Source: Candidatus Woesearchaeota archaeon
GTDB taxonomy: Archaea; Nanobdellota; Nanobdellia; Woesearchaeales; WAPJ01
NCBI GenBank assembly: GCA_047602765.1
Contig: JBLKOL010000002.1
Coordinates: forward strand, 10,597-74,596
Direction of reading: 5' to 3'
Length of the DNA: 64,000 nt
A program made the position numbers and the translations under genes. Positions 1-24,388 of the stretch are shown here, in pieces. The notes under the pieces were generated by a model. It was not told the origin of the DNA. It saw only the letters and a list, made by a program, of their open reading frames with translations, and did no database searches. Position 1 is the stretch's first letter; every line of letters starts with the position of its first letter.

Positions 1-3000
1 GCTCACTCCCCATCCGGCAACGCCGAAACGGTAGTCAGCTCCACAGCCACCGAGGTGGTCGAGGTCGAAGGTCACGCTGAACGTGTCCATTCCGCTCTCC
101 GAGACACTGACCCACGTGGGCAGTACCATCCACGACGTCCAACTTCCGCCAACGACTTCTCGGTAACCCCAGTAGTCGCCATCGTAGTGGCTTCCCTGAT
201 CTGCGTGGTACGACATCTGGAAGTTGGCTTCGCCATCGTTGTTCGCGTCGAACGTGAAGGCGACGTTGTCCTGGCTCCCGTCGACGAACGTGATGGGCGT
301 CGTTGCGGTGAAGGTCACCATACCATCGGTTCCGTAGAGAACCTCGACTTCGAGGTCTTCGTCGTAGGGGGTTTCTGCGCTGTACTCATGGGCGGTGTCT
401 ACGAGCAGGCACGTTCCAACGTCCTCCATCGTTGCTTCTCCCCAGCAGTACGCATCATCTACGAGTGCCCACGCATAGTACGTCCGGTTCACTCCGCTCG
501 GGTGCGGTTCGGGATCGTACGCGTCGAGTTCATAGCGCGTCTCTGTGTCCGTCCAGGTCACACCGTCCGCAGTGTACTGGGGTCCGGTGATCTCGAGTTC
601 GGTCACAGGCGGTACCGTTTCGACATAGTAGAACTGGTCTGCCATGTCCTTGCGGTTGCCGAGTGCGTCTTCACAGTACCACTTGAGCACGTGCTCCGAG
701 TCCTCGTTGAAGTCGAACTCGTAGCTGACGCCTGCAAAGCCCTTCGCCAGGAGTTCTGCTTCACGGAGCATCATTCCGGTTACGAGGCAGTACTCACCAT
801 CGTACTCCATACCAAAGCCCGGGAACTCGACGACCTTCTCGCAGAAGTCACCGTCGCATTCTTCGCGACCCAGGTTGCAGTAGCTCTCCGTGATGTCTTC
901 TCCGTCGTTGTAGACCTTGAAGCCGATCACTTCGCCACCGACCGGGTGGGGCATGACATCCTCACAGCTCAGGGTGATCGGAGTGTCTTGCGTGACGTAC
1001 GTGTAGTAGTCGAAGCAGACGCTTCCCGGCTCGGTGCTGCCACCGTTGCCGTTCTCACCGTTATACTCGGGAGAGGCTTCGAGGCTTGCGATCGCATCTG
1101 GTGTGATGCCATCAGCGGTACCAGCGAGCGCTTCGTCTACCTCTACGCTTCCGGAGGCGACCGGTGCGGTGTTCGAGCAGAGCCAGGTCACAGTAGTGCT
1201 GAGAAAGTTCTCATTGGTGTATCCGGTACCGTCGTAGTGTTCGAGACCCCCGCTTCCGCAGTATCCGCACACGGTTCCACACGTTCCACCCCAGTCGGCG
1301 AGGTACGTGTAGCCGAGCGAGTTGCAGATGTTCAAGGCATCATACTGACCTCCGCTGTTCGCCGAAACCCATGCGGTCTCAGTGTCAGCGCGGCAGACGA
1401 TGTAGGGCGAACCATACGAGGATTCTCCCGTCTGTCCATCGAAACCAGCTCCCGATCCGGGCGCATCATCGACGATGCAGATCTCGTCTTCAACAACGAT
1501 CTTCGGCTCGCCGACAATCTTGGTTCCATTGGGTGCCTGGTTGTCGACCATGACAAACTGCTGCTGCATCTCTTCTTCGTGACCGAACTTGTCGACCGCG
1601 AAGTAGCGGATCACATGGCAGCTCGTCTCGTCGATGGTGAACTCGACCGATTCTCCCTCGACCATAGTCCACTCCGGAGCCACATCAAACCGAACCCAAT
1701 CAAAGTACCAGTCGCTTTCTGCACCAACAGAAACACGAACTTCCACATAACCATCTGCCTCAACTTCCAAAATCGCAGAGTCCGGACCTGTAAGGCAGGT
1801 AAAGTGCGGAGCTGTGTTGTAGTAGTCCGGAATATCATACCAAGGGTTAGAACCGCTTGACAGACTTGTATCTCCATCAGGTCTGACCTCAAAGCAAGAC
1901 ATCAGAGGACCTCCATAATTGACTTCAAGGACTACATGTGTCGAGTTTGCATCCAACATAACCACATGCGGTCTATTAGTACCTATGTTTTCCTCATTAG
2001 TGGACTTAAACTCAAACGTTCCACCAGATACGTCAGCAACGGGCCCTACCACATCCGGATAGGCTTCACACACATCATCGCTTACCCATTCAACACTATA
2101 GTTGATGTAAGCGACTCCGATCTTCTCATCATCTGCTTCGAGGGTGATCGGGGTGCTAGAGGTAATCCAGCGGTACGTTCCGTCAAAGACCATGGGTTGT
2201 CCGTAGTCCTTGTCGGTAACCGGCGGCGTGCCGTCGACGAGGAAGCGTTCGACATCACTCATGGTGTTTCCGAGCAGGTCTTTGCACGTTACCGAGAGGA
2301 TGTGCTCGCTGTCGTACTCGAATACGATGACTGCGGGGTTGTCTTCGTCGAAGTAACCACCGTCATAGTGTTCGTAGACACCATCGTACTTGATCGTGTA
2401 CGTACAGTAGGCACCGCCAGAGTAGTGGACTGCTGCGTCTCCTTCCATGAAGTCTTCGACCGAGAGGTGTACTTCGGTCTCTCCCATCTTGAGGTAGCAC
2501 TCAGCTTCCATGTCTCCGTTATCGGGGACTTGGTCGGTTCCTGCAGGGCAGTCGGGTCCATCGTGCGGTCCGACAAGCGTCTTGGTGAGAACCGGAGCTT
2601 CATCGTCGATCTTGAAGTATTCGACGTCCTGCTCGCTCATCTTATCGACAGCATCGATGCACCACGCAGAGAGCCTGTGCAGGCTCGTCTGATCGAACGT
2701 GACGGTGTCTTGGTTCCGCGTGACGCCTCCGTCAACCTGTTCCCAAGTCTCTCCATCTTCCGTGCGGTGGAGTGCCCAGTGGACTACTTCCCCTCCTGAC
2801 GGGTGGGGTCCGACGTCTTCACAGACGAGCGTGACGACCGTGTCGGTGGTACCGAAGAAGTTGAGCGTCTCGTGGTATGCTCCGTTCGCGGTCCAGCGCG
2901 TCCAGTCAGCCGGGAAGTGCTTCTGGCTGCTGCCAGCTGTGTCCTTCCAATCAGCTTCAGCATTGACAGCCCAACCAAGCGTACTTGTATCGCCAAGAAT

Positions 3001-4658
3001 CGCATTGAGAACAGCTAGGTCAACCGAAATACTGAAATCAGTGCCTCCAGCAACGCCGGTAACGGTTACTCCTGGAGGAAGGGCTTCGGCATCTCCCCAA
3101 CCATTATCCCATTCCTTAATGTATGGAACACCGCCAAACTCAGCATCGTTTATACCAACGAGACCGATGGGCTCAGCACCGTTCGTGAGAACGACTTGGA
3201 TGCCGCTTGCAGTCACATCATCTTCCGTTTTGTCTAGACCGAGTTCAACATCAATCGTGACGCCTTCACAGGTGAAGGTACGTGTCATTGTTAGGTCGAA
3301 GTCGTCCTTGTTGCCAACACTAAAGTCAGCACCAGTCCAGGTGTCCACAACATCCTCACGGTCGAGATCGCACAGGTGCGGGATCGCATCCTCTACGGTC
3401 TTCGTGAGCTCCGGAGGAGTCTTGTCGACAAAGAATCGGAGGTACTGAACGTTCTCGTGGTTCTGGAGCTTGTCGTAGCTCTTGAACTCGATGACGTTGC
3501 AGCTCTCGTTGAATCCGCCGATCGTCTCTCCTTCGTATTCGATCCAGTCGCCATCGTAGGGTCCGGCAACGTGACCGTTTCCGAGAGGGTTGAGTGCGTT
3601 CTCATGATCGAAGCACTCGTGGTAGTCCGCCGGATCATCGAAGTAGTGGAGGCGGTATTGCGTCGTGACACCTGATGCATCGAACTTGTTGTCCTCTGCG
3701 CTCAGGGTGAATGTCGTACCACCGTTGGCGTACCATGCGTCGCGGAGCGTTCCGGACTGGTAGGTGCCTTGGTAGAGCGGACCGTCGTGGGACCAGCTCG
3801 TTACGGGCGCGGTTCCATCAACGATGTACTCTTCAGTGACCTGGTCCGCTTGGTTACCGGCGACATCCCAGCAGTCGACGACGAGCTCGTGATCGGAGTC
3901 ACGGTCGAAGTAGACGTTCCACGTGATCGAGGGCTCGCCACTACCGTATTCGGTTCCGCTGTCTTCGACTTCGCCGTTTCGGTAGAGCGTCCAGTCACAG
4001 TAGTCGATGCCGCTCTGGCAGTCGACATCAGCGACGTCGTTCGCCGTTATTTCAACGTACGAATCGCTGGGGTGAACATAGAGATCACCGTTGTGGGTCA
4101 CGTTCGTTCCGAAGAGCTCGGTCGTGATCACAGGCGGCGTCACATCGATGCTCGTGAAACCGTGGTTCATGTTAGCGTCTCCGCCAATCTCACCGGGATA
4201 CGTGTCGACCGTCTGAACATACCACTTCAACTCACACACATCTCCGGCACCCGCAGGAGTCTTAGCGGTGAAGGTGAAGTCCTTGCTCGTATCGTCATCG
4301 AAACCGTCGGTGAGTCCTGCTTGTGCGACCCACTGGCACGCATCGGTGACGATCTGGTTCGTTCCTGGTTGGTACACGTTGTGGTAGTTCAAGTTCCATC
4401 CGGTTATTGGATCACACACGAAATCCTCGTAAAGAGGATTCTTGTAGATCCAGACCTGTTGGATGGGGTCTGAATCAGCTTCGTTCGTTATTTTGAACGT
4501 ATAATCGATCACTTCATCGGGCTGCGACCACTCGGGGCTGAGCTCGACCGTCGCGGTATGTGCGAGCGGCGCGATCCCTCTGCGCTCACCGCGGTTGCGA
4601 CGAGAAGCAGAGCGAGCAGTGCGGCCGTGAAGCGCGTTACTCTTGTATGTTCTACCAT
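1..4658 (-). CDS. Giant secreted Cys/Asp/Trp-rich surface protein, partial (continues past the window start). The signal-peptide exon is in a different frame from the body (frameshift near 4577).
   Basis: Triplets at window positions 1-3, 4-6 and so on, complemented, contain no stop from position 1 to 4803 (checked triplet by triplet). ATG at 4658 has a GGAGGA Shine-Dalgarno sequence 7 nt upstream and encodes MVEHTRVTRFTAALLALLLVATAVSAEG, a classic signal peptide, but that frame stops after 49 codons. The long open frame is offset by one base. Confidence 0.6.
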
Positions 4659-4876
4659 TGTTGTTTCCTCCATATACAAATGGGAACTGATTGATGATCA
4701 TGATGATCAGGAATCGATTCGTGTACCGGGCTGTTGGGGTAGTCCGATACTTCGGGGCATACGAGAACCAGCAAAGACTGAAACGTACCCCCCAACTGTG
4801 CGTTCAAACGCATAACGCCTTGGAAGCGCACCCACAGTTATAAACCTTGCCCGGATGTGACCACTAATGGTGAGTA

Positions 4877-7800
4877 TCACGACGAGAAAACAGAATATTT
4901 TCGTCCCGCAAAAAGGACAAACATAACGAGTGCGAGTGATGCGATGAGGAGCACGAGCGACACCGGCTCGTCTTCGATCGGTCGCGGTTCTTCGGGCAAC
5001 GGCAGATCAACGAGCGGCATGTCAACGACAGCTCCAATCCGTTCTTCGGCGACCCCTATGACGAACACACTCAGTCCCGGTGCAACAGCCACATAATAGT
5101 AGAACCCCTCCGAAAACCGAACCATCTCAGTTTCAAGCAACTCCCAGCCAGTAGCGAACCTATACAGGCCTATAGCATCAGGATGTACTCCTTCGGTTTC
5201 GATCCACACAGCGGGAACCCTGAAAGAGAATTCGACCTCGCCCGCTTCTTCAACACGGATTTCGGCGATCTCATACGTGCGACCACGGAACGGTTCGACG
5301 TGTTCAGGCACCTGTGCGAGTTCTCGGATCTCGATACGCGGTTCGATACGCGGAGTGGACAATCGCGCTTCGATACGCTCGAATGATCCGGCGCGCTCAA
5401 CGCTCACGACGTCGACCGGTTCGGATTCGGGTTCTCGATCGGGTTCGTGCGGTTCGCTCGTCGTCGCCATGCCACCGCCACCTCCTCCACCCCCACCGCT
5501 CGGAGCACCACCCGTGCTCGGCTGCGTGATTTCGATGGTGAATTCGTTGCTCTCTACCGTCACACCATCGCGTTCTGCTACGATCCGTGCGGTTCCGCTT
5601 CCCGAATACGCGCTTGGAGCGTTCAGCGTTGCGCTCGAGCCGCTGATGGTCATCGTGACGGGAAGAGTCGTGTTGAGCGAGAACGAAACATCGTTCGCAG
5701 TGGTGAAGTACGAGAGAAGATCGATCGTCCGACTCGACCCTTGATTCCATGTTTGAGCAGGGATGGTGCTCGTGGTTTCGAGCGGTACGGGTTCGGGCGA
5801 TACGATGATATCCCACGCGACGTCTGTTTCCGCAAGGCTGTTGGTTGCGCTCAGTACGAGCGTTCCGCTCTCAAACGCGTTGAAGAGGAATTCGCTCTGT
5901 GATCCCGTGGTCGGGAAGGGTCCGATGAGGTGTCCTGCTTGGGAGACTTTGTCGAGCCATACGTCGTATTCGTCTTCTTCGGCGCTGCACGGCACAGGGT
6001 CTGATCCGAAGAGCGCCGTGTTATCGGTCCATGAGGTTGCGTCAGGAGTCCACCAGTTGTTTCGAACGGTTGGCGTGCTCATCCATCCGATCGCGTTCCC
6101 GCGTCCGCTGTTGTTCTCGAAGTCTGCGCTTGCGTGCAGGTTCCAGATGTATGCTCCGACGTTCTGCGAGTCGACGAACACCAGGTCTCCTTCGGGGTTC
6201 GTCACGTATCCGCATGAGATGATCGTGTTGTTCTCGATGCGGTTGTGTGCTCCTGCGCTGATCGCGATGCCATAGTTGCTCGTCGATACGACGTGATTGT
6301 TGTATGCGTGGAGGTATCGGTTCTCGCTCGTTCCGTCTCCGAGCATGATCCCACCACCCGAGTACGATCCGTGTTCGGGGTCGAGCGGGTAGGCTCCTTG
6401 GAAGTAGTTGTCGTGTATCCGGATCGGATCACCTGTTCTTCCCGAGGTTCGGTAGAGGCTGACGATGTCTTCGACGAAGCTCTCGTACGGCTCGTTGATG
6501 ACCTGGTTCCATGCGACTCGGGTGTTCGTCATGTTCCTGCTCTGGTCGAATTGGACGAATTGGACGTAGTGGACTCCTGAGAACCCTCCACTCCCATCGG
6601 ATATGCGTCCGTCGATGTTGCGCACCGTGTTCTTGAGGATCTGTACGGTTCCTCCGTGGGTTGAAGGGTGCATGTGCAGGTAGACTCCGCTCGTGTTCTC
6701 GAGGTGTGAGTGTTCGAGGAGCAGGTACGTGTAGCTGTCGAGGGCGATGAACCGCCCAGGGTACCTTCCTGCCTGTTCGGGTCTCACGCCGATGCCTTCG
6801 ACGTTTCGTACCGTTACGTTAGCGACGTATTCCGGTGGCGAGTAGATGTGGGTTGCGACGCTTCTCGTTCTCGAGTTCTCGATGGTTACGGGCTCGCTTG
6901 TTGCGATCGTTACGGCAGCAACGTCCGGGTCGGTGCTCTCCCACGATCCGCTGTAGGTTCCTCTTTCGGTGATCGTGATCGGCGAATCATAGGATTGTGC
7001 GCTCGTGGTCGTGAACGTCCAGTCGAACGTGACGGTTCGTCCTTTGACGTCGCTCGCGTTCGCACTGAACGTGCGTGTTTCGTTGTGTTCGAGTTCGATC
7101 GTTCCCGGCTGTGGATGTGCTTGGACGATCGGCCCCACAGCTTCTATGGTGAGGTCCCACGATTCTGTTACGTTCGAATCCTGGTTGGCGACTACCACGC
7201 GCACCTCGTAGAGAGCAGGGTCGAGGTCCATGCCATCGATCGTGACGTTCGACTCGTTCCCGAGCGGTGTTCCGTTGAGCGTCCACGTATAGTTGAGTCC
7301 TTCTTCGTACGGGTCGAAGGCTTCGACGGAGAAGGTGATCGTTTCGTTCTCGAGGACCGATACGCCACCATCTTCTTGGCTGCGGCTCGTGATGAAGGGT
7401 GAGGGGTCGATGATCGTGATCGTATATTCCTGTTCAGCAGATCCGTGTGTCTCAGTCTCATCGTGTCTGACCCGAACCGAGTACGAACCGGGTGCCATGA
7501 ATGCTTCGGTGTGGTTGATCGTCGTATTCGAGGCGTTGATGAACACGTCGTCGATGAAGAGTTCTATGATGGATCCGCTCGTCAGGTTCGCATGGATCGT
7601 TGCGTTGACAACTCCCACGTGTGTCAGGTTCGAAGCGTTGCCGTTGATCGTAACGTCGAATAAGGATTCGTATCGAGCGTGGAACGTTTCGGTGACGTGC
7701 GATTCTGTGCCGCTCGTCGTGTTCGCATATACTGTGATCGTGTACATGCCTGCGGTGAGGTTCTCGACCGTGAGGGTTCCTGTCGGTTCGCTGCGGATGA

Positions 7801-9407: not shown

Positions 9408-11765
9408 GTGGTATGCTCAAAGCCTATGGTACGCGCATTCCTCGGTGAAGCGAACTCGAAGCGCTTCTCGTACGAACTCTCTAAACTCACACGGCATGCG
9501 GCGATCCTCGGGACGACGGGTTCGGGCAAGACGGTGATGGGCAAAGTCCTCATCGAAGAAGCCCTCGCCTCGGGCGTTCCGGTGATCGCCATCGATCCGA
9601 AGGGTGATCTCGGCTCGCTCGGGGTGGTGCATAAGGACTTCGACTTCCGTCCGTACGGCAAGCTCACTACGTCTCGCGCGCTCAAAGTGCGCGACCACTA
9701 CCGCCAAGCGAACATCCCATCAGGACTTGTGGATTCGCTCACGAAGGTTACGACGACGGTCTACACGCCAAAATCACAAGTGGGGCGTGCGGTGAATCTC
9801 ACGCCTGATCTCTCAGCGCCCAAGCGGTTCGCCCATCTCTCAGCGTCCAATCCGATCGCAGCCGCAGGATTCGTCGAGCCGATCGCCGCTTCGCTCCTCT
9901 CCCTTGCAGGGATCAGCGGGTCGCTCGAAGAACGTGCCGAGTCGTTCATCGCAGCGCTCATACTCCATTCGTGGAATGAGGGTCGTGATCTTGACATCCC
10001 TGCGCTCATCGCACACGTCAAGGATCCGATGATCGATGGTATCGGATCGCTGAGCGTCGGAGAAGTCGTATCGGATAAGGAGCGTACGCGTATCGCAGCT
10101 CAGCTCAATACGATCATCTCGTCTCCGGCCAAGCGCGCGTGGTCGCTCGGTGATCCGCTCGATATGGAGTCGATGCTCTCGAAAAAGACGCTTTCGGTCT
10201 TCGATCTTCGCTGGGCGACGAGCCAGTCTGATAAGCAGTACGTCGCTGAGCGTATCATGAGTGAATTGTATCGCGCACTGCTCAGCCGTGGAGGCTCTTC
10301 GAGGCTGCGTTACGTGCTCTATATCGATGAACTCGCAGGACTTCTCCCACCACCGCCGGCGAGCCCGCCGTCCAAGCGAGCCCTCGAACTCCTCGTACGA
10401 CAGGCGCGGGCCTTCGGTCTTGGTATCGTCGTAGCGACGCAGAACCCTGGTGATATCGATTCGCGTCTCTTCGGTAATATCGGAACGCGTTTCATCGGAC
10501 GCCTGCGTACGAGCATGGATATCGAGAAGGTTGCGATCGCCATGGACCTTCCTCCTTCACAGTTGCGCGAAGAGGTCTCGGCCTTGACGGCCGGAGGGTT
10601 CGTCGTGAACGATGCCGTCGACAATCGCATGAGCGTCTTACGCTGCCGTTGGCTCGCCTCGTTCCACGAAGGTCCGCTCAGCGAACGCGAGGTCGGATGG
10701 GTGAACGATGGTGCACCGGCACCGGCAGAGCCGCTTCCCAAGCCTTCACGGTCCGCTGCGGCTTCGAAGGATGCGAAGACGTCCGCGAAGGGTGCGAAGG
10801 GCCGGACGACAAGGGGCACGAACAAGAGCGGAGCAGGGAAAGCGGAGCCTTCGCGTATCGCCGGTAAGAACATCGTACGCGATGCGAAACGCGCGAAACA
10901 CACGACGGTTTCTCGTACGCAGCACCTTGCGCCTTCGGTGGACAAGCAGATCAAGAATCTGATCGGACTCGTCAAGAAGCATGCTGATGACGTACAGCTC
11001 AAGGTCGAGATATCCGAGCGACCTGCGCAGTCGTATACGCCACACCTGCGTCTTGTCGTAGCGCCCAAGCCGCTGCGCGGACTCGAGCTTCCGATCCAAG
11101 GACCGTTCGTCTTCGATATGACGAGTCGTCTCATCCCGATCGGAAACTACCTGAAGGGCAAGACGTTCTCAACGTACGTTCCATCCGATATCTCGATCGA
11201 GAAGCACGCGCGTTCGGTGATGAAGGCCGTAACCTATGCGCGTCACGAGGCGAAACGCGAACTCGCAGGTACGTTCTACGAGTCCAAGCTCACCGCCTTC
11301 GCATCACCATCACGTTCGGAGGTCGAGGATATGAACCACCGCTTCCTCTCTGAGGAGCTCACGCCGTTCTTGCGTCAGATCGATGCGAAGGCCCGGCGTG
11401 ATATCGACGATCTCAAGGCGCGTATCTCAGCCCTTCGGACCAAGCGTTCGAGCCTCAACCGCGAGCATACGATCCACCGCGCTCGTCGAGCCATGAGGCG
11501 CGTGCTCACCGATCAGAAGCTCAAGAAGCGTACGGCACAGATGCAAGAGCGCGAACGACGCATGGCGATGATCGACAAGGAGATCGCACAGCTCAAAAAA
11601 CGCATCGAAACAGTCAAAGAGCGCGCATCAGAGCAGAAGGAACGCCGCAAGGCACGCGTGTACGAGAAGGCGCACTCACAGGTACGCTCGATCCGCTATC
11701 GTCCGACGAACGACGATCTGCGCATCCACGCACAGGTGTTGCTCGTACGCAGCCGCGGACGATAA
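9408..11765 (+). CDS. HerA-like / DUF853 (YjgR)-family P-loop ATPase with a ~340-aa Lys/Arg-rich coiled-coil C-terminal extension.
   Basis: Walker A AILGTTGSGKTV followed by VPVIAIDPKGD. Walker B VLYIDELAG. VVATQNPGDIDSRLFGNIGTRFIGRL motif. GTG at 9408 or ATG at 9426 as start. Confidence 0.75.
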   Translation: MVCSKPMVRAFLGEANSKRFSYELSKLTRHAAILGTTGSGKTVMGKVLIEEALASGVPVIAIDPKGDLGSLGVVHKDFDFRPYGKLTTSRALKVRDHYRQANIPSGLVDSLTKVTTTVYTPKSQVGRAVNLTPDLSAPKRFAHLSASNPIAAAGFVEPIAASLLSLAGISGSLEERAESFIAALILHSWNEGRDLDIPALIAHVKDPMIDGIGSLSVGEVVSDKERTRIAAQLNTIISSPAKRAWSLGDPLDMESMLSKKTLSVFDLRWATSQSDKQYVAERIMSELYRALLSRGGSSRLRYVLYIDELAGLLPPPPASPPSKRALELLVRQARAFGLGIVVATQNPGDIDSRLFGNIGTRFIGRLRTSMDIEKVAIAMDLPPSQLREEVSALTAGGFVVNDAVDNRMSVLRCRWLASFHEGPLSEREVGWVNDGAPAPAEPLPKPSRSAAASKDAKTSAKGAKGRTTRGTNKSGAGKAEPSRIAGKNIVRDAKRAKHTTVSRTQHLAPSVDKQIKNLIGLVKKHADDVQLKVEISERPAQSYTPHLRLVVAPKPLRGLELPIQGPFVFDMTSRLIPIGNYLKGKTFSTYVPSDISIEKHARSVMKAVTYARHEAKRELAGTFYESKLTAFASPSRSEVEDMNHRFLSEELTPFLRQIDAKARRDIDDLKARISALRTKRSSLNREHTIHRARRAMRRVLTDQKLKKRTAQMQERERRMAMIDKEIAQLKKRIETVKERASEQKERRKARVYEKAHSQVRSIRYRPTNDDLRIHAQVLLVRSRGR

Positions 11766-11863
11766 CCAGAGCACGCTCTGCTCGAAGCGCTCTCGCTCGG
11801 TGAAACCATCACGTCGGATCATCACGCAGAGATTCTTAAGGAACTCCCGTCATCCGAAAGCGT

Positions 11864-12280
11864 ATGGCTCGATTCGTCGACATCGAAACGCCCTACTCAG
11901 CAAGGAGCGACGAGGAAATCAGAAGGAATCTCCTCTATGCAAGAGCGTGCATGAGAGATAGCATGCTGCGCGAAGAGATCCCGTTCGCGTCACACCTCAT
12001 CTACACCCAGCCAGGGATCCTCGACGACGAAGTCCCGCACGAGAGGGATCTGGGGATCATCGCCGGCAAAGAACTGATCGAAGCGCTTCCCGGAGTCGTC
12101 ACCGTAGTCTACCAGGACCTCGGGATCTCTTCGGGGATGCAGTTCGGGATCGACCGTGCACACGAACAGGGAAGAAGAGTGGAGTATAGAACGCTCAGAG
12201 ACGATTGGGAAGCGAACGAACGCGAAATCGCAGCGAAGCACGCTCATGCGCATCTGTGGGGCCTCGACGCAGAACGCTAA
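11864..12280 (+). CDS. Hypothetical 138-aa cytoplasmic protein.
   Basis: Clean ORF with native acidic composition, sited between the HerA-like and MoxR genes. No confident family recognised. Confidence 0.55.
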   Translation: MARFVDIETPYSARSDEEIRRNLLYARACMRDSMLREEIPFASHLIYTQPGILDDEVPHERDLGIIAGKELIEALPGVVTVVYQDLGISSGMQFGIDRAHEQGRRVEYRTLRDDWEANEREIAAKHAHAHLWGLDAER

Positions 12281-12373
12281 GATCTATCGGAGCGTGTTCT
12301 CCTCAGCACACCGATACACAGGTTCTGTGTTCGCGATGAAGCGTTCCTTCTTTCCGGTGGCAGCAAAGCATAT

Positions 12374-12700
12374 TTGAATGGCGAGCGGCTTAGGAGTCGT
12401 ATGGCGGATGCGTTCCACATGCACGCAGGCGGTTCGTTCGACGATATCGACTCGTTCGAGCTCGCACTCATCCATATGGACGAACACGTCTTCGCCCATC
12501 ATACCGACGGGCGCAACGACTTCGCGAGTTGGGTTGAGAGTTCGCTCAAAAAGCCGCTTCTCGCCGCGCTCCTGCGCGAATGCCGCAGTGCTCATGAAAT
12601 GGCGATGGTACTCGAGACCTATCAGCTCGTAAGCCAAGCACCCGAACAAGAGGTGCTCGTCTCTGATGTCGTGCGTCGGCTCGTCGGACGATTCTCATAA
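12374..12700 (+). CDS. Hypothetical protein carrying an NDFASW-motif domain, paralogous to the N-terminus of the downstream MoxR protein.
   Basis: FHMHAGGSF..ELALIHMD..FAHHTDGRNDFASWVESSL aligns with MoxR residues 9-70 (FVLHDGRQV..ELVSVLESMD..YAHYCNEYKNDFASWIRTAL). Confidence 0.6.
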   Translation: MNGERLRSRMADAFHMHAGGSFDDIDSFELALIHMDEHVFAHHTDGRNDFASWVESSLKKPLLAALLRECRSAHEMAMVLETYQLVSQAPEQEVLVSDVVRRLVGRFS

Positions 12701-12762
12701 CAACATATTTAAACGGATGTCTGATTGGTCTGCACGGGGATTCCAGGGTCGCGGCTCCTCAC

Positions 12763-14337
12763 GTGATACTCATGACAGCAGGCGGATTCGTACTACACGA
12801 CGGAAGACAGGTGCATTCGATCTCAGAGCTCGTATCCGTGCTCGAATCGATGGATCCTACTACGTATGCTCACTATTGTAACGAGTACAAGAACGATTTC
12901 GCGTCGTGGATCCGCACGGCGTTGCACGAGTCCCAACTCGCCGATATTCTCGAAGAGACACAGAATCGTGAAGCTGCGATCAGCGTTCTGCGCACGTACG
13001 TGAGACTCCACGCTCCAGAGGACCCGTTCCGGGTCGAACACTCCGAATCGGATCGCAAGAAGTTCTTCTTCCACAAGAAGCCATCCCGCTCTGAGCCAGA
13101 TGACCCTGCACGTGTCGCACCGCCTGAACCTCCACAACCCGTCTCGATGGACAAGCAGATGTTCAAGGAAGCCGACATAAGGTTCGAACCCGAGCAGCCG
13201 ACACAACCGGTACAGGAACCAACCCCTCCGGCAGAGCCGCAGCCGACACCACCACCAGTTCAACCCTCTCCACCACCTGTAGGCAGCAATCCTGATGCTC
13301 CGTACGAGCCGCACGCCGCGAAGGGCGCTACGCAGTTCACGGATTCCGGAGAAGAGGTACTCACCGAGACCGTGGTCGAAGAGTATGCTGAGACGCTCCA
13401 TGCCATGCGCTCTGAGATCAACAAGGTCTTCATCGGTCAGGAGGAGATCGTCGAACAGGTGCTCTTGTGCCTCATGTGCGATTCCCATTCGCTCCTCGAA
13501 GGAGTACCTGGACTTGCGAAGTCGCTCCTCGTAGAGACGCTCACGCACGTCGTCGACGGGACGAAGTTCAACCGTATCCAGTTCATCCCCGACCTGCTCC
13601 CTTCAGATGTCATCGGAGGTCAGATCTACAATCCGAAGACGCAGGAGTTCACTGTTATCAAAGGTCCGATCTTCGCGAATTTCGTGCTCGCAGACGAGAT
13701 CAACCGTGCCCCTCCCAAGACACACGCAGCGGTCATGGAGGCGATGCAGGAGAAGAAGATCAACATCGACAAGGAGGAGTTCGACCTCGACCCGCCCTTC
13801 CTCATCATCGCAACACAGAATCCGCTCGAGAACAAGGGAACGTACGAGCTTCCCGAGGCCGTTCTCGACAGGTTCATGTTCAAGCTCGATCTCGACTACC
13901 CGTCGCGCAAAGATGAGAAGATCATCATCACCGAGAACGCTACGACGAAGAAGTACGAGAAGCAGGCGGTCCAGAAGGTCGTCACCAAAGAGCGCTTCTT
14001 GCAGATGCAGCGCAACGTGAAGAACGTGTACCTCTCTGAGCGTATCCGTGACTACATCCTCGACCTCGTAGAAGCCACTCGTGGTATCAATAAGGACATC
14101 GAAGGATACCAGTTCGTCAAGTACGGTGCTGGTCCGCGTGCGTCGATCTACCTCGGTATCGGTGCGAAGGCTCGTGCGATCATGCAAGGCCGAAACTACG
14201 TCTTGCCCGACGATGTGAATTTCGTGGCGAAGCCGATCATGAGGCATCGCGTCGCGCTCAACTTCAAAGGTAAGGCTCACGGTATCAAGTCGGATCGCAT
14301 CGTCGAGGAGATCCTTCATAAGGTCACGACTCTTTGA
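12763..14337 (+). CDS. MoxR-family AAA+ ATPase with a ~200-aa N-terminal extension (NDFASW domain plus Pro/Gln-rich linker).
   Basis: C-terminal 320 aa carry MoxR hallmarks (GVPGLAKSLL Walker A, FVLADEINRAPPKTHAAVMEAMQEKKI, ATQNPLE). The N-terminus is paralogous to the 12374..12700 ORF. Confidence 0.85.
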   Translation: MILMTAGGFVLHDGRQVHSISELVSVLESMDPTTYAHYCNEYKNDFASWIRTALHESQLADILEETQNREAAISVLRTYVRLHAPEDPFRVEHSESDRKKFFFHKKPSRSEPDDPARVAPPEPPQPVSMDKQMFKEADIRFEPEQPTQPVQEPTPPAEPQPTPPPVQPSPPPVGSNPDAPYEPHAAKGATQFTDSGEEVLTETVVEEYAETLHAMRSEINKVFIGQEEIVEQVLLCLMCDSHSLLEGVPGLAKSLLVETLTHVVDGTKFNRIQFIPDLLPSDVIGGQIYNPKTQEFTVIKGPIFANFVLADEINRAPPKTHAAVMEAMQEKKINIDKEEFDLDPPFLIIATQNPLENKGTYELPEAVLDRFMFKLDLDYPSRKDEKIIITENATTKKYEKQAVQKVVTKERFLQMQRNVKNVYLSERIRDYILDLVEATRGINKDIEGYQFVKYGAGPRASIYLGIGAKARAIMQGRNYVLPDDVNFVAKPIMRHRVALNFKGKAHGIKSDRIVEEILHKVTTL

Positions 14338-15245
14338 GGGAACGCATGGAGAAGAATGATTCGAGCATTCCGGTCAACATGTTCGATTTCGAAACGCTCA
14401 TGCGCGAGACGGTACGCGAGTCCGTCAAGCTCCTCGAATACTTCCGCCTCAGCCTCATCTACTACCAGCTCGTATCGGGTAAGGGTCTTGAGTTCGACCG
14501 TATCCGCGAGTACCACCCCGGTGCCGATCCGCGTCGTATCGACTGGAAGATCTTCGCCAAACGAGGAGAGCTCAAGATCCGCGCGTTCAAGGAAGAACGC
14601 CATTTCGACATCATTATCGTGCTCGACGTTTCGGATACGATGCTTCTGGGTACGACGTCGATGACCAAGAACGAGTATGCTGCGATCGTGGCCGGAGCGT
14701 TGACGTTCGCGGCGATCGAAGCGTCGGATAACGTGGGGCTCGTGATGAACTCTTCGAAGGTTTCGCTCGCTACGGATCCGACATCGGATTTCGCCAAGAT
14801 CATGGCGGAGGTCGCGAACACGGATAACTATGGTGGCGAGAAGGACTGGGATAATCTCGTGCTCAACCTCACCGGTAACTACACGGAGGATTCGATCGTC
14901 TTTGTGATATCGGATTTCATCGATACGAATCCCGAACGGTTCTTGCCCGAACTCTCAGGCCACTTCACGAAGGTATATGGTATCATGGTCCGTGATCCTT
15001 CGGATAACGAGATCCCCCCAGGTGTGGGACGCATGTACCTTCAGGATGCCGGTGGCAAGAAGATGTACCTCACGGACTTGGACCACGTGCGCGAGGAGTA
15101 CGCACTGCTCGCTCGCCGGCAGATCGATCTGATACGCGATTCGTTCCACAGCTACGACCAGCTCTTCTTCGAGATCACGACGCTCGGAGAGTTCGCTGAG
15201 GAGTTCATCAAAGCCCTCGGATCCGAAGAGGTGATCGTATCGTAA
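14334..15245 (+). CDS. DUF58 family protein (MoxR partner).
   Basis: 4-bp overlap with the moxR stop (ATGA). Typical DUF58 length and position between MoxR and the VWA protein. Confidence 0.75.
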   Translation: MRERMEKNDSSIPVNMFDFETLMRETVRESVKLLEYFRLSLIYYQLVSGKGLEFDRIREYHPGADPRRIDWKIFAKRGELKIRAFKEERHFDIIIVLDVSDTMLLGTTSMTKNEYAAIVAGALTFAAIEASDNVGLVMNSSKVSLATDPTSDFAKIMAEVANTDNYGGEKDWDNLVLNLTGNYTEDSIVFVISDFIDTNPERFLPELSGHFTKVYGIMVRDPSDNEIPPGVGRMYLQDAGGKKMYLTDLDHVREEYALLARRQIDLIRDSFHSYDQLFFEITTLGEFAEEFIKALGSEEVIVS

Positions 15246-15265
15246 CCGCACAACTCGGAGGATTC

Positions 15266-16216
15266 GTGCTCGACCTGTACAATCCGTTCGAGAACCTCAT
15301 GCTCCTCGTCTTGCTCTTGGTATTCACCACGCTCGCCTTCTACAGTTTCACGTTCCTGCGTAAGAAGCGCGCGTCGCGCTTCGGGAACATCAAGACGCTC
15401 GAACGCGTCCACGGCTTCAAACGCTTCCACATCTCTCCGGGCATCTTGATCATCAAGCTCTTCGTGGTAAGCCTGCTCTTTCTCGTCGCGACGGATTCGG
15501 TGCAGGTCTCGCGGTTCCAGCCGACTGCTGATACGGATTACGTCCTCTTGCTCGACACGTCTCCTTCGATGACCCAGACGGATCTCAATCCGAGCAGGCT
15601 CGGAGCAGCTAAGAACATCGCAACCGACTGGCTCAGAGTCGTTCCCAACGGAACCCGTGTGGGCCTCGTATCCTACAGTCGCGAACTCGGATCCACGGTA
15701 GACCCGACGTTCAACAAGGAGCATATCCGCTCCGAGATCGCTCGTGTGGAGGTCGATCTCAACCAGACGGATACGTCTCCGGATTTCGCCATCCAATACG
15801 CTACGAACATGCTCAACGATTCTACGAACAAACGCGCGGTGCTCCTCTTCACCGATGGAACGCAACCGGTTGATCCTTCGACCATCCGTCTCGCCCAGAA
15901 CCTGAACGTTCGTATCTATGCGTTCGGTATCGGAACCGAAGAGACGCGCGAGTTCGACCTCTCGGACATCCCCGAAGAGTTGTGGGATACGTTCGATCGC
16001 CTCGAGTTCAACTTCTCACGCCTCCAATCCCTCTCCGAAGCGACGAACGGAACCGCATACCACATCGGCAGCCAAGACGACCTTCGCCAAGCCTTCCGCG
16101 ATGCGACGTACGAGGAAGCGGCTATCCAACTCAACAGCGCCTTCTACGTGCTCATCCTCATAGCCCTCATTTCGATCCTCGAACTCTTCGTCTACGCACA
16201 CTTGGGTGGAATCTAA
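15266..16216 (+). CDS. VWA-domain membrane protein (BatA-like).
   Basis: N-terminal and C-terminal transmembrane segments. VWA MIDAS-like LLLDTSPSMTQTD motif. Completes a MoxR-DUF58-VWA operon. Confidence 0.8.
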   Translation: MLDLYNPFENLMLLVLLLVFTTLAFYSFTFLRKKRASRFGNIKTLERVHGFKRFHISPGILIIKLFVVSLLFLVATDSVQVSRFQPTADTDYVLLLDTSPSMTQTDLNPSRLGAAKNIATDWLRVVPNGTRVGLVSYSRELGSTVDPTFNKEHIRSEIARVEVDLNQTDTSPDFAIQYATNMLNDSTNKRAVLLFTDGTQPVDPSTIRLAQNLNVRIYAFGIGTEETREFDLSDIPEELWDTFDRLEFNFSRLQSLSEATNGTAYHIGSQDDLRQAFRDATYEEAAIQLNSAFYVLILIALISILELFVYAHLGGI

Positions 16217-18806: not shown

Positions 18807-21260
18807 CTAGTACCTCCTCCTGCGGATCACCCATACGGTGAGCAGCGTCCATGCGGCGAGTATGATCATGAGGATGGAGAAGCTGAGCGGGCGGTCGAGG
18901 AATCCTCGTTCTTGGATGAGGAGGGTTACGGGTACGAATCCTACGAGTCGTCCTTCTCCGTCTTCGAATCGCAAGTGGTAGTCGCATACGTCTGATCCTG
19001 CCGATCGGAACGTGTAGGTGAGTGCTGATCGTTCTCCGACTTCGAGCGAGCCCGATCCAGTGATGTCGCTGAGGCACGGTGTCGGGTCGAATCTGATGGT
19101 GATGTCGTCGAGCGGGTTGTCTCCGATGTTCTCGATGAGGAAGCTTACGTCCTGTCGGGCGTTGGGAGGCATGCGTATGACCGGTGGATACTCGATGACT
19201 CTGAGTCGGTAGAGGTCTCCTCGGGGGAGTACGATGACGCGTAGTACGTCTCTGAGGACGCGGTTGCGGCTCAGCCCGTCTGCGGAGTCGACGTATACGT
19301 CTACGGGTATGAAGTATTCTCGTGGTGTCGCTCGAACGTCGGGTGAGAGCAGGTACGAGTCTGACACGCGCTCTCCCGGAGGGAGCTGGAGGAGTCGGAA
19401 TATCTCAGCTTCCCATTCTCGTGGTACTTGGGTTTCGATCGAGATGTTGCGTGCGCTCGTTCCTCCGACGTTCGTAAGGTTGAAGTCTACGCTTCCGATC
19501 TCTCCTTGTCGGAGCGTGATGTTCTCTGGGAGTTCGAGTTCGAGTTCTACGATCTCGGGGAATACGTCTACTTCCGGTATCTCTACGGGTGCGCTCGGCG
19601 TTCCTCCCGCTCCTGTGCCGCTTCCTGCCTGTGGTTGGGGCTGTGGTTGAGGTTCTGGTTCGGGTTCTGGTTGTGCGAACGTCGATTCGAAGGCGTACGG
19701 TGCGAATACGGAGAAGTCTGTGATGTTGGTGGGTGAGAATACGATGCTCATCTGTGGTGCTACGAGTGTGAAGAGCTGTTCCCACTCTCCATCGGTCCAC
19801 GAGCTGTGGTTCGACTGGTTCGACTGGTTCGTCGCGTTGCCGTTCGTCACGTTACCTATCGTTTGGTTGACCGGTCCGATGTAGGTTCCGTTGAATTTGA
19901 AGATGCTCACGTTGTCGATGACCGCGTCGTTGGGAAGCGGTTCGCTGTACTTGAAACCGATCTGTACCCACGAGTTAGGTCCGTTCCTGATGAATTCGAC
20001 CCAGTGGCCTATGTCTGTGATGTTCGTGATGTTAGGTGGTGGTGGCGGGTCGGGTACGGGTCGTACGAGTGCGTCTGCGAAGGAGGCGTTGAGTACGGAC
20101 GTTGAGAAGTTCGTTTCGAAGAGCCTGACCCTCGAGTTGCCGGATGCGTTGATGTCGTTGTCTTCGTTGGAGAGGATCATGGCTTCTGCGATGAGTACGT
20201 CGGATTGGTTTCTGATGAGCACGCCGGTATTGTGGAATACGGCTGACTCTCCGAATATGGCGACCGAGCTGTTCGTCACGCAGAGTCCGTAGCGGAACTG
20301 TGCGGTCTTCAGGTTCTCAAAGGTGATACCTTGGCTGTTGCGCACGTCGACCGGGCATCGTCCAGGGGCTTTGCTCCCTGCCGGATCGTTGTCTCCGTGG
20401 ATCTGCTCTCCGACGAAGTTGAGTACGATGTTCGATGCGTTCTCTACGATGACGCACGTTTCGTTGACGTTGTTGATCGACTTGTTGAGGATGTAGTATC
20501 CTGATTCGTTGAGCGGTTCGCATGGCTCGTATACGAGTACTTCGAGGCTCAGGATGCCGTTGACGTAGATGCGTTCTCCTCCTTGGAAGCTTCCGTCGAA
20601 GAGTATGAAGTCGTCTTGGTTCATGATCGAGCGTTCGATGACCGAGTCGTTGGCTGCTACGATGGAGGTGACCATCTGGCGTTCGTTTCGCGTGATCGGC
20701 ATGCCGGTCTCGTCGAATACGGTGTCGATCGTGATGAAGTACTGTTTGGGAGGTCCTCGTACTTCGATGCCGATCCGGAACGAGCCGTTGAGCAGCGTAT
20801 CGAGGGGTTCGAAGTCTGAGATGACCGTCTCGTTCGTCGCGTTCTTTCTGATGATGAACGGTGTCGGATAGCCGGGGTAGAGGCTGTTGAGGCTTGAGAG
20901 GTCGACGTCTACCGACGAGCAATACTCGGTGCCTACGAGCGTCACTTCGTGTACGCGGGGTTTGAAGTTGAGCAGGCTCCATTCGAGTTCTTTGTCTTCT
21001 GATACGAATCGCAAATCGATGCGATCATCGACTTGGAGGTCCGGATGGCATATGTCGAGTACGACGTCCGGGTTCGTCGGGCTCTGGTCGATGTAGGCGT
21101 CAGCTCCGAAGGTCGCAGGGTACGATGCGTTGTAGACCGATCCTGAACGGTCGTATCTGAGTTCCAATACGGGTGTGCCGTCCTGGGTGACGAGGCTCGC
21201 GTTCGCTGCGAGCGCGGTGGGTACGAGGAGCAGTACGAGCACGAGCCATTTCATGGTCAT
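18807..21260 (-). CDS. Secreted cell-surface glycoprotein with beta-helix (NosD/CASH-like) repeats, very many N-x-S/T sequons, a PEPEPEPQPQPQ linker and a C-terminal transmembrane anchor with RRRRY tail.
   Basis: Signal peptide MTMKWLVLVLLLVPTALAANA. More than 30 N-glycosylation sequons. C-terminal LSFSILMIILAAWTLLTVWVIRRRRY. Confidence 0.8.
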   Translation of the reverse strand: MTMKWLVLVLLLVPTALAANASLVTQDGTPVLELRYDRSGSVYNASYPATFGADAYIDQSPTNPDVVLDICHPDLQVDDRIDLRFVSEDKELEWSLLNFKPRVHEVTLVGTEYCSSVDVDLSSLNSLYPGYPTPFIIRKNATNETVISDFEPLDTLLNGSFRIGIEVRGPPKQYFITIDTVFDETGMPITRNERQMVTSIVAANDSVIERSIMNQDDFILFDGSFQGGERIYVNGILSLEVLVYEPCEPLNESGYYILNKSINNVNETCVIVENASNIVLNFVGEQIHGDNDPAGSKAPGRCPVDVRNSQGITFENLKTAQFRYGLCVTNSSVAIFGESAVFHNTGVLIRNQSDVLIAEAMILSNEDNDINASGNSRVRLFETNFSTSVLNASFADALVRPVPDPPPPPNITNITDIGHWVEFIRNGPNSWVQIGFKYSEPLPNDAVIDNVSIFKFNGTYIGPVNQTIGNVTNGNATNQSNQSNHSSWTDGEWEQLFTLVAPQMSIVFSPTNITDFSVFAPYAFESTFAQPEPEPEPQPQPQPQAGSGTGAGGTPSAPVEIPEVDVFPEIVELELELPENITLRQGEIGSVDFNLTNVGGTSARNISIETQVPREWEAEIFRLLQLPPGERVSDSYLLSPDVRATPREYFIPVDVYVDSADGLSRNRVLRDVLRVIVLPRGDLYRLRVIEYPPVIRMPPNARQDVSFLIENIGDNPLDDITIRFDPTPCLSDITGSGSLEVGERSALTYTFRSAGSDVCDYHLRFEDGEGRLVGFVPVTLLIQERGFLDRPLSFSILMIILAAWTLLTVWVIRRRRY

Positions 21261-21559
21261 GACCCGATTACGGTTTCGAGGAACGCGGTGTAGCTGTGGT
21301 AGACGAAGTCGAGGACTTGGCTGATGATTTCGCGGCGGTGGATCGTCTTCGCGGGGTACGGTCCTTGGAAGGCCGGGTCGGCGATGTAGAAGGGATACTG
21401 TTGGGTGAGTACTCCGTCCACGACGAACGTGAATTCTTCTCCGTCCTCTTGGCGTCCGATCATGGAGAGTTCGTATCCGCCGATGTAGTTCTCAAGATCG
21501 GTGTAGTTGTATTGTGGGAGGTAGAGTTTGTTGTAGGTCGGCATGAAGTAGAGCGACAT
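21257..21559 (-). CDS. Small hypothetical ORF, probably the frame-shifted C-terminal portion of the upstream 371-aa secreted protein.
   Basis: Overlaps the 3' end of 21492..22607 by 68 nt in another frame. The open frame continues upstream of its Met with protein-like sequence (…ITFRTDYSGAMSLYF…). Confidence 0.4.
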   Translation of the reverse strand: MSLYFMPTYNKLYLPQYNYTDLENYIGGYELSMIGRQEDGEEFTFVVDGVLTQQYPFYIADPAFQGPYPAKTIHRREIISQVLDFVYHSYTAFLETVIGS

Positions 21560-22607
21560 CGCTCCTGAATAGTCGGTTCTGAACGTGATCGATGTTTGTG
21601 AACGCGAGGGTGTCGATGTTTCCGCGGTTCCGGTACGTTACGAGGAGCACGTTCGCATCCGTGTAGCGCACTACGGATTCTATGACGAGATCAGCGCTCG
21701 GGTAGTCTACGAAGAACGTTTCAAGGTCGAGGATCTGTCCGGTCATGCCCGGAAGGTTCGTGATGGTCCGTCCGTATTTGAGCATGAGCGCGATGTCGCG
21801 TCCTGCTCCTGAGCGGATCTGTTGTCCGAGGTTCGCAGCGTCAGCGCTCACGATCTCGAACCGGTTCACGTTGATGTCTCGTACCGTTGCGATCGTATCG
21901 GCGAGCATACCTGAGTAGACGACGACGGGTTGTCGTTTGAGGAGCGATTCGTAGTCGACGCGGTCGACCCTCATGATCACTCCCCACTCAGCGTTGAAGC
22001 GTTCGGATACCATCCGTGTGATATCATCGGCGTTCGTGGGGCTCAGTTGTTCGTAGCGTTCTTCGGCGTCGATGCCTTCTACGAGCCGGACGGGAAAGCG
22101 TCCTGCGATGATGATGCGCTCTGCGCTGCGCGCTGCGCGTTCGACGTCATCTCGGCTCTCTTCGTCGAGGAAGAAGGGGCGCATCGGCGCGTGTCCTGCG
22201 AGCGGGAGGATCGAGATGGCTTCTGCTCCGAACTTCGGGTCGAGGAGGACGAGCGCTTCGTACCGGTCGGTGAAGTGGTCTCGTTGGAAGTCGCGGAACG
22301 TTCCTGATTCGTGCACCGTGAAGTCTGTGAAGCCGTTCGTGCGCAGTACGGATGCGTAGTTTCGCACGATGGGTCGTGAGGATTCGAATACGACGATCGT
22401 CGAGTTGGGTCTGATCGTCTGTGTCTTGATCTGAGCATCTCCAAGGTTGGTGAACGAGACGATGTTCGCCTCGTGTTGTATCGCGTATACGGTTCCGAGC
22501 GTGACGTCACGCCAGTCTCGGCTGTTCACGACGACGACATCGGTCGCTACTGCTGCGTATGCGCTCACGAGCAGGAGCATGACGATGAGTACGACGCGCA
22601 TAGGCAT
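21492..22607 (-). CDS. Secreted protein with three ~100-aa alpha/beta repeats (CWB2-like cell-wall-binding-type triple repeat), paralog of 22641..24344.
   Basis: Signal peptide. Three internal repeats. N-terminal domain alignable to 22641..24344 (VNSRDWRDV / VSDSREWTDV; TIVVFESSRPIVRNYASVLRTNGFT / TIEVYESSERPFVRNTAQKLRSAGYT). Confidence 0.7.
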   Translation of the reverse strand: MPMRVVLIVMLLLVSAYAAVATDVVVVNSRDWRDVTLGTVYAIQHEANIVSFTNLGDAQIKTQTIRPNSTIVVFESSRPIVRNYASVLRTNGFTDFTVHESGTFRDFQRDHFTDRYEALVLLDPKFGAEAISILPLAGHAPMRPFFLDEESRDDVERAARSAERIIIAGRFPVRLVEGIDAEERYEQLSPTNADDITRMVSERFNAEWGVIMRVDRVDYESLLKRQPVVVYSGMLADTIATVRDINVNRFEIVSADAANLGQQIRSGAGRDIALMLKYGRTITNLPGMTGQILDLETFFVDYPSADLVIESVVRYTDANVLLVTYRNRGNIDTLAFTNIDHVQNRLFRSDVALLHADLQQTLPPTIQLHRS

Positions 22608-22640
22608 CGCTGGCGATTCGTGCTTATTAAACTATGCGGG

Positions 22641-24344
22641 TCAGCGTCTCGTTTTGACGTAGAAGAACATGCCGAGTGCTGCGATGACTAGGAGCGCGAT
22701 GAGTCCTGCGACGGCGGCTCCTGCTCCTCCGGTGACGAGTCCTGCGAGGAGTCCTCCGCTCTTCGTCTGGAAGGGTACATCCTCGGTGATTCTCAGGAGC
22801 AGTGCGTCTTGGCTCGCTCCGTAAAGGATGTCGATCGAGAGCACGTCGTTCTCTTGCATGTCGATCTCGTCGAGGCGTACGGGCAGGTACGTCGTCTTCT
22901 CTTCGCCAGCGCGGATGCGGTCTTGTGAGAAGAGGTCGGTGGGCAGTCCGTTGACGAGGATCTGTTGTACACGTACGTTGTAGTGTGCTTGTTCGCTCCC
23001 GGTGTTCTTGATGGTAACGCCTACGCGTCCGAGTCTCGGGTAGTATGCTGCTTCGACGAGTTCGAGCGATACGTCTCCTGCATCTACGGTCTCGACGGTG
23101 AGCGGGATGGTGAACGGCGGCCCGAACCGGTTTTCCATGGTGAGGAAGGTGTCGAGTTCGCTCGGAGTGAGTCCGAAGGACGTGAAGAATTCCGCTACGG
23201 TCGAGTCATCGATACGATCGATCGGTATCGAGACGGGGTAGCGCTTTGCGAACACCTCTCCGGTTCCCAGGTAGTTGATCTCATCATCGGATACGGCTGC
23301 GACTTCTTCATCTCCGGTTTTGACCGAGATGGTCGTCGTCTCGTATAACCCGATGTTTCCGATGTTCTCGAAGAATGCGATGAGTTCTTCGGTCGAGGGG
23401 TCGTATACGGCTCTCTGGATGGTGAGTCCGAGGAGCGGTTGGGGCAGTGGGAACATGGTGAGCGCATAGATGCGTCCGCTCGCCTGCGTATCTGACTGTC
23501 CGAATTTGATGAACACACCGATGCGGCGTTCTGATCGTTCTCGGATCTGTTCCCCTACGACGGCGAGCCGGTTCCCTATGACGACGACGCTCCTCACATC
23601 ACGCGAGAGGATCCATTCGTACGTCTGTTCGGATACGCGATTGTATCCTACGATGATCACCGGTGATTTCGCGGTGAAGAATTCTGATTCGATGCTGAAT
23701 CCGTCTGCGAGTATGATGTTGCTGTGCGAGTCGTATCTGTCGGCGAGGATCTGTGATTCTGCGAATACCGAGTCTTCGCGGATCCACTCATCGAAGGTGC
23801 CTTCGATGCGGCTGAGCAGGTCTCGTCTGAAGCTTCCGACGGCTACGACGCTCTGTGCGCCTTCGAGCCGTTGTGCGATCTCGTCGATGTTGCGATCGTT
23901 CGCGATGAGTACCCATCTATCTTCGGCGACGGCTATGGGTGCTACGGCTACGCCGATGCGATAGTAGTCTTCGCTGATGACGAAGTAGCGTCCGTTCTGC
24001 GGGTCGAGGTCGAGGTTGAACGATGCGCTGCGCGTATCATCCGCTACGGTGTATCCTGCGCTGCGCAGCTTCTGAGCGGTGTTTCTCACGAAGGGGCGTT
24101 CGCTCGATTCGTAGACTTCGATGGTGGCTCGCTCACTCACCGTGCGCAGAAGGCCCGTGAGCGTTTCTGAGTTGAGGAATACGGCTCTTCCGTCGTTCAT
24201 CGTGCTGTGGAGCAGGACGCTGTAGACGTCCGTCCACTCGCGCGAGTCTGAGACGGCGATGGTATCGGCGGTTACAGCGGGGAGGATGAGAAGTCCAGCG
24301 AGGAGCATGACGGCTAACAACCCTCCTCGTCCGTTTTTAACCAT
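22641..24344 (-). CDS. Secreted triple-repeat surface protein with C-terminal Gly/Ala-rich transmembrane anchor (KTRR tail).
   Basis: The track start is GTG 24419. The likely true start is ATG 24344 (MVKNGRGGLLAVMLLAGLLILPAVTA signal peptide). TTTATAA box ~37 nt upstream. Confidence 0.75.
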   Translation of the reverse strand: MVKNGRGGLLAVMLLAGLLILPAVTADTIAVSDSREWTDVYSVLLHSTMNDGRAVFLNSETLTGLLRTVSERATIEVYESSERPFVRNTAQKLRSAGYTVADDTRSASFNLDLDPQNGRYFVISEDYYRIGVAVAPIAVAEDRWVLIANDRNIDEIAQRLEGAQSVVAVGSFRRDLLSRIEGTFDEWIREDSVFAESQILADRYDSHSNIILADGFSIESEFFTAKSPVIIVGYNRVSEQTYEWILSRDVRSVVVIGNRLAVVGEQIRERSERRIGVFIKFGQSDTQASGRIYALTMFPLPQPLLGLTIQRAVYDPSTEELIAFFENIGNIGLYETTTISVKTGDEEVAAVSDDEINYLGTGEVFAKRYPVSIPIDRIDDSTVAEFFTSFGLTPSELDTFLTMENRFGPPFTIPLTVETVDAGDVSLELVEAAYYPRLGRVGVTIKNTGSEQAHYNVRVQQILVNGLPTDLFSQDRIRAGEEKTTYLPVRLDEIDMQENDVLSIDILYGASQDALLLRITEDVPFQTKSGGLLAGLVTGGAGAAVAGLIALLVIAALGMFFYVKTRR

Positions 24345-24380
24345 TCGCACGTGCCCCTTGGGTGTTCTCGCCCTTCGACC

Positions 24381-24388
24381 TTTATAAT
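24381..24388 (-). promoter_or_regulatory. TATA-box-like element (TTTATAA) for the minus-strand surface-protein operon.
   Basis: AT-rich hexamer in a GC-rich context, ~37 nt upstream of ATG 24344. Confidence 0.35.

Follow-up and report, generated by a model that had tools for sequence, protein, structure and literature searches.

The window analysed here, a 64,000-nt stretch of Woesearchaeota DNA, carries at its left edge a giant gene whose start and body lie in different reading frames; all coordinates given for this gene refer to the minus strand. Its intact upstream neighbour encodes an S8 subtilase of 1438 aa (MFT4307882.1; 4877-9193, minus strand). In the 218-nt spacer that follows the subtilase gene, the sequence TTTATAA at 4838-4844 is a candidate archaeal TATA box, and a Shine-Dalgarno motif, GGAGGA (4666-4671), stands 7 nt ahead of an ATG at 4658. 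The open reading frame that starts there (4658-4509) has 49 codons, the first 27 of which (4578-4658) specify a predicted Sec-type signal peptide, MVEHTRVTRFTAALLALLLVATAVSAE, now in a frame of its own. Sec (type I) signal peptides are expected to have an n-region with positive charge, 10-15 hydrophobic residues as the h-region and, for cleavage, a small-x-small motif; here these are a charged MVEHTRVTR, the stretch FTAALLALLLVATAV (hydrophobic core LLALLLVATAV, mean Kyte-Doolittle value 2.92 over 11 residues) and SA-E, within a VSA-E cleavage-type motif. The product of ATG 4658 begins with MVEHTRVTRFTAALLALLLVATAVSAEG and turns into Arg/Ser-rich junk thereafter, the frame continuing with SRRSHIPRRSSSAPSGRSPMK up to a TGA at 4511-4509. 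The out-of-frame tail of this ORF, GSRRSHIPRRSSSAPSGRSPMK and then TGA, occupies 4509-4577.

The body of the giant protein is read in register with position 1 of the window, a frame without a stop from 4803 to 1 (1601 codons). From 4578 this frame reads GIAPLAHTATVELSPEWSQPDEV, and from Ile 4575 it comprises 1525 codons (1-4575) before it runs off the window edge. A sister contig (L002) supplies the C-terminus: counted from Gly 4578 the body has 2104 residues, and the protein with its two frames repaired would have 2131 aa. The earliest start codon of the body frame is an ATG at 4699-4701, which NCBI annotates as the start of a 2145-aa protein (MFT4307881.1, MIINQFPF...). This start has neither a Shine-Dalgarno motif nor a signal peptide; its N-terminus is Arg-rich and non-hydrophobic, and the first 69 residues contain no signal-peptide-like stretch. 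Their Kyte-Doolittle maximum over 11 residues is 1.03, reached by GIAPLAHTATV, which lies downstream of the junction between the frames. Two other genes of the window, those for DnaG (36787) and FKBP (41092), also have GGAGG followed by A or G upstream at a similar spacing. Because the context of ATG 4658 matches these other genuine starts and ATG 4701 lacks a Shine-Dalgarno motif, we take ATG 4658 to be the real, ancestral start codon.

The two frames can be joined by a single base. Between 4567 and 4591, no homopolymer other than GGG at 4578-4576 reaches three bases, and one base added to this GGG gives ...AVSAEG followed directly by IAPLAHTATVELSPEW. An earlier note on this DNA had drawn the same picture, from the stop-free frame continuing beyond the window and the signal peptide behind GGAGGA at ATG 4658 to the stop after 49 codons, the Arg-rich N-terminus at ATG 4701 without a signal peptide and the joining of the frames by one extra base, and in all of this it holds; it had, however, placed the GGG run at 4577-4579, one position away from where the run lies.

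We compared this layout with that of related proteins, as the earlier note had suggested. An exhaustive HMMER search with the first 1200 body residues against 1.84 billion representative proteins gave 893 homologues, 223 of them below 1e-30; the repaired N-terminus retrieved a single homologue (P0001) in a word-indexed protein search. For 11 intact homologues, the alignment begins somewhere in residues 23-47 of the homologue and in body residues 2-7 of the window protein, and the window signal peptide aligns with their signal peptides. In all 11 a single frame covers signal peptide and body: the signal peptide is followed, 0-7 residues on, by the motif H-[TDN]-x4-L-[QSE]-P-E-W-S, and this H-x4-L-x-PEWS motif is what opens the body frame of the window. 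As the homologues join signal peptide and PEWS motif in frame, the match of the two pieces in the window goes beyond chance, and the ancestral gene should likewise have had both in one frame. Homology thus crosses the break into another frame while intact relatives are single-frame, as expected of a frameshift pseudogene. It follows the signal-peptide frame up to ..AVSA (about 4591) and the body frame from LAHTATV (about 4567), so that the window would have lost one base (or gained two) within 4567-4591. GGGG to GGG at 4578-4576 would be the simplest such event.

The giant protein is very acidic (pI 4.05). It has no Pfam domain above threshold, and sequence searches of the full protein against Pfam, PHROGs and PDB gave no significant match. 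It scores 68.4 bits against the NCBIfam OmpL47-type beta-barrel domain NF047446 (cut-off 40) and does not reach the equivalog NF047441 (71 bits; cut-off 250). With the OmpL47-type proteins (NF047446/NF047441, Leptospira OmpL47) the body shares the repeat signatures YYSVD-x-x-GN-x-E and PHPSG; unlike Leptospira OmpL47, it is archaeal, roughly 2100 aa long, multi-module and below the equivalog model; its N-terminal module is family-specific, and its conserved C-terminal module (about 230 aa) belongs to no named family. An AlphaFold2 model from a 13-sequence alignment, covering body residues 1-276 (pLDDT 88.3), has two beta-sandwich modules, for which Foldseek returned cohesin/FN3 pairs, transglutaminase C-terminal barrels, pilins and integrin domains. 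These features fit a secreted, multi-module cell-surface protein that would need its signal peptide.

The first of the two modules (4575-4150; body residues 1-140) resembles the copper-binding YcnI/DUF1775 fold (PDB 7me6 and 8um6; TM 0.74-0.78, 20-23% identity). A nearly invariant His, shared by the window protein and the relatives aligned with it, stands 1-9 residues past the predicted signal-peptide cleavage site. YcnI binds Cu via its N-terminal His; if the conserved His acts in the same way, correct processing of the signal peptide would matter for function.

We then looked at the junction in sister assemblies. The same genome is present in Logan assemblies of SRR32456828, -845, -846, -847, -854, -879, -880 and -894; all of them belong to one run series (SRR324568xx), apparently from the same project as the NCBI MAG. 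The 28-nt junction is identical in the Logan loci of four runs (SRR32456845, -846, -847 and -828), and it is therefore reproduced within this one project by two assembly pipelines, that of the NCBI MAG and the k-mer-based Logan, with contigs of up to 67-82 kb. None of the Logan loci examined has the GGGG form. Two further contig collections, one of genomes and one of metagenomes, lack this organism and have no bearing on its alleles: neither an alignment nor the junction pattern with 0-2 extra bases had a match in them. Compared pairwise with the window, sister contigs show 0-2 substitutions per 8-21 kb and not one indel, with more than 70 kb compared in total, and about 36 kb of gene calls on them include no split gene. 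Random sequencing error is excluded as the source of the frameshift, because the same junction occurs in four runs, GGGG in none, and indels nowhere in these pairwise comparisons. The protein catalogue, of about 15 billion proteins, agrees: the repaired 2131-aa protein is absent from it, and the frameshifted products appear as a 289-aa fragment on 13 contigs and as the 2145-aa protein on four, counts that fragment length biases and that do not represent allele frequencies. At 90% identity, the giant protein is also clustered with an unrelated 48-aa sequence (P0154, on a 215-Mb contig), an artefact of the database.

Two of the sister contigs (L004 from SRR32456847 and L005 from SRR32456846) begin at 12168, adjoining a SNP at 12169, which is where contigs from a clean de Bruijn graph should break, and these contig starts suggest polymorphism within the sample. 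Across about 36.6 kb surveyed there are six substitution sites in total, and the population is nearly clonal, with about 1 SNP per 6 kb or less. One of the six lies in the giant gene: G>T at 3834 turns GAA (Glu, body codon 249; 3832-3834) into TAA in both contigs of SRR32456845 (L002 and L003) and in L004, which differ from the window inside the giant gene by that single base. L005 keeps GAA. The TAA allele, which truncates the body at this codon, is present in many sister contigs and segregates as a nonsense allele. A variant found on two contigs (P0153) combines it with a 9-nt in-frame deletion that removes NVG from the conserved YYCVDNVGNVGE motif. Against six substitutions in about 36.6 kb, a nonsense allele and a motif deletion in one gene amount to an excess of damaging variants, and both alleles, seen directly in the contigs, are signs of relaxed constraint on the giant gene.

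The 9-nt deletion, which takes NVG out of YYCVDNVGNVGESD, falls in a short tandem repeat beyond position 1 of the window, at about 14,200-14,300 of L002, when P0153 is compared with P0002. The other sites that separate sister assemblies from the window are 12169, 37580, 47573, 49525 and 50840. The in-frame TAA of L002, together with one of the stops in the orthologue described below, raised the question of TAA reassignment, which we rejected: TAA terminates seven of the 26 window genes, as well as the giant gene itself, and is an ordinary stop.

The closest orthologue (L001; JGI 3300076001, Ga0645781_32943) comes from a different archaeon of 34% GC, lies at 1037-6531 of its contig and shares about 47-50% protein identity. 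It carries five lesions, namely three changes of frame (near 1136, 1200 and 3232) and two in-frame stops (TAA at 2063-2065, another at 2393-2395), and reads as a decayed pseudogene. Its signal peptide is in one frame and the segment HDATVDLHTPEWS in a second; what remains of the N-terminal domain returns to the first. The first shift is due to one extra base, where the window misses one, and lies about three codons downstream of the position in the window. Both genomes have a lesion no more than about 10 codons away from the signal-peptide junction. Of the five in the orthologue, two fall within 170 nt of its start, adjoining that junction, and their early position may be a coincidence or reflect a preference for early knock-outs.

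The giant gene is likely a real and recent single-base frameshift pseudogene in a near-clonal Woesearchaeota population, with later lesions still segregating. In such a gene, a single base would have been deleted in the archaeal DNA no more than about 25 nt from the region where the signal peptide is cleaved. Ribosomes loading at the Shine-Dalgarno motif and ATG 4658 would yield a 49-residue signal peptide with a junk tail, terminating at 4509, and the 2104-codon body could be read from the ATG at 4701 alone. As that start provides no export signal, the surface protein would no longer be made or exported. Its loss would be neutral or favoured, and with the body still stop-free in the window allele, more inactivating lesions would be spreading in the population. 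Of the three explanations that the earlier note had offered for the split, recent pseudogenisation is the one that gains support, from the junction repeated in four runs and from the nonsense and in-frame deletion alleles in the same gene. Counting against it, 2104 stop-free codons in the window allele would also fit a functional gene if the junction were artefactual or bypassed, and we weighed the explanations of both kinds.

The earlier note had also considered a sequencing indel. The true genome would then read GGGG, the gene would be intact, and a systematic one-base undercall would have been repeated in every assembly of the run series. As a single project appears to underlie both the NCBI MAG and the Logan contigs, a platform-specific systematic error at GAGGGGATC is conceivable, and the junction has a GATC motif adjoining the G run, a context that troubles some long-read base-callers. 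Nanopore-based Nanobdellota genomes, in a data set separate from that of the window, have about six assembly frameshifts each (bioRxiv 10.64898/2026.05.13.725050). Such an undercall would nevertheless have to recur identically in four runs through a different, k-mer-based pipeline and its long contigs, and it would have to stand alone, with no indel over the more than 70 kb compared and no other split gene among the calls, in assemblies that break at SNP sites like clean de Bruijn graphs. Moreover, accurate platforms do not tend to err at a run of 3-4 G, where a systematic error is improbable, and the independent nonsense and deletion alleles indicate that constraint on this gene has already been lost. 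We therefore consider an artefact quite unlikely. A bypass by the ribosome would leave the DNA as it is: in programmed or leaky -1 frameshifting, a Gly-tRNA would slip from GGA to GGG (G_GGA to GGG_A), and a fraction of ribosomes would make the full secreted protein. The geometry fits, a -1 shift at G_GGA giving exactly AEG-IAPLAH, and P-site-only slippage is known from the archaeal fucA1 system (PMC1616953). As in the window, fucA1 of Saccharolobus solfataricus has overlapping 0 and -1 ORFs that would make one functional protein if joined (PMC1616953); it differs in having a slippery A-AAA-AAT with a stem-loop and an overlap of 40 nt, where the window has neither element and an overlap of 225 nt (4803-4579), and in that the split is not conserved among the relatives of the window gene. 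The 150-nt overlap holds no X_XXY_YYZ heptamer, so that only a single-tRNA slip at G_GGA is conceivable, and the downstream RNA is no stabler than its dinucleotide shuffles (four folds, z = +0.40, +0.16, -0.97 and +0.35). None of the 11 homologues needs a shift, the broken orthologue would need a different one and has in-frame stops besides, and the TAA allele at codon 249 would defeat it. These results make frameshifting very unlikely as the way in which the gene works, though residual slippage at G_GGA might still give a trickle of exported protein. Transcriptional slippage, for which there is no long A/T or G/C run, was rejected.

The third suggestion of the earlier note, a slippery homopolymer that makes the locus phase-variable, would have slipped-strand mispairing in the G run toggle the surface protein. 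Giant surface proteins are the usual target class of phase switches, and the lesion does sit at a short run of G right where the gene begins, as the frame break does in the poly-G/C contingency loci of Neisseria, Campylobacter and Haemophilus surface genes. Contingency loci are recognised by a hypermutable tract, typically of seven to eight or more identical bases, and in Neisseria the tracts that vary are those of eight or more (PMC5084427). The tract in the window, by contrast, has three G, one of 818 such runs on the plus strand (480 G3 and 338 C3); no variant of its length occurs in any assembly examined or in the protein catalogue; and the nonsense and deletion lesions downstream could not be reversed by any change at the junction. 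Phase variation is accordingly not supported, and we regard it as highly improbable. It is also scarcely credible that the locus functions as it stands, with a secreted 49-aa peptide and a separate 2145-aa protein, cytoplasmic or otherwise exported, made from ATG 4701. NCBI does annotate that CDS and its ORF is intact in the window, but the start lacks a Shine-Dalgarno motif and opens an Arg-rich, non-hydrophobic N-terminus, all full-length homologues are signal-peptide proteins with extracellular-type beta-sandwich modules, and the nonsense allele truncates the 2145-aa product too.

A frameshift pseudogene needs no new mechanism, and the case is ordinary in kind. In the frameshift pseudogenes of surface and adhesin genes of host-associated, reduced-genome prokaryotes, a 5' single-base indel likewise severs start and signal peptide from the body, secondary nonsense and indel lesions follow, and annotation pipelines pick a shorter or alternative CDS, as happened here. 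What differs is that the window comes from an uncultivated DPANN archaeon and that the gene was caught early, with 2104 codons open and later lesions polymorphic. It offers a snapshot of the order of gene decay, the frameshift being in every assembly inspected while the nonsense and in-frame deletion alleles still segregate. The 2145-aa "hypothetical protein" of NCBI has an artificial start (MIINQFPF...) and should be annotated as the frameshifted pseudogene of a 2131-aa secreted protein. Giant DPANN surface proteins are thought to mediate host contact, and the loss of this one may bear on DPANN lifestyle. Two Woesearchaeota lineages would have lost the same orthologue independently, and one could read this as loss that is favoured and not neutral, in which case further knock-out alleles may also be rising in the window population; we find this unlikely. 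Were it true, it would point to DPANN archaea repeatedly losing, by mutation, a protein that serves in host contact or as a virus receptor.

The subtilase encoded upstream and the giant protein may be functional partners. The subtilase has an N-terminal signal or anchor, a Gly run and a C-terminal transmembrane helix, with weak matches to PKD-like and Y_Y_Y-like beta-domains that both fall below Pfam cut-offs, and an identical protein is found on 20 contigs. No subtilase was called upstream of the closest orthologue, where the contig extends for about 1 kb, too short for such a gene. On the opposite strand directly upstream, genes at 9408-16216 (plus strand) encode a HerA/FtsK-like ATPase (785 aa), a DUF7768 protein, a MoxR AAA+ ATPase with an N-terminal extension and DUF58/VWA proteins, forming a MoxR-VWA type module that adjoins the surface-protein genes. 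What looks like a second surface-protein cluster lies at 18807-24419 (minus strand), where three consecutive genes have signal-peptide-like N-termini (817, 371 and about 592 aa), the first with an NPCBM_assoc/Ig-like domain. The window also encodes the archaeal markers DnaG primase, diphthine synthase, RtcB, SerRS and an archaeal CMP kinase.
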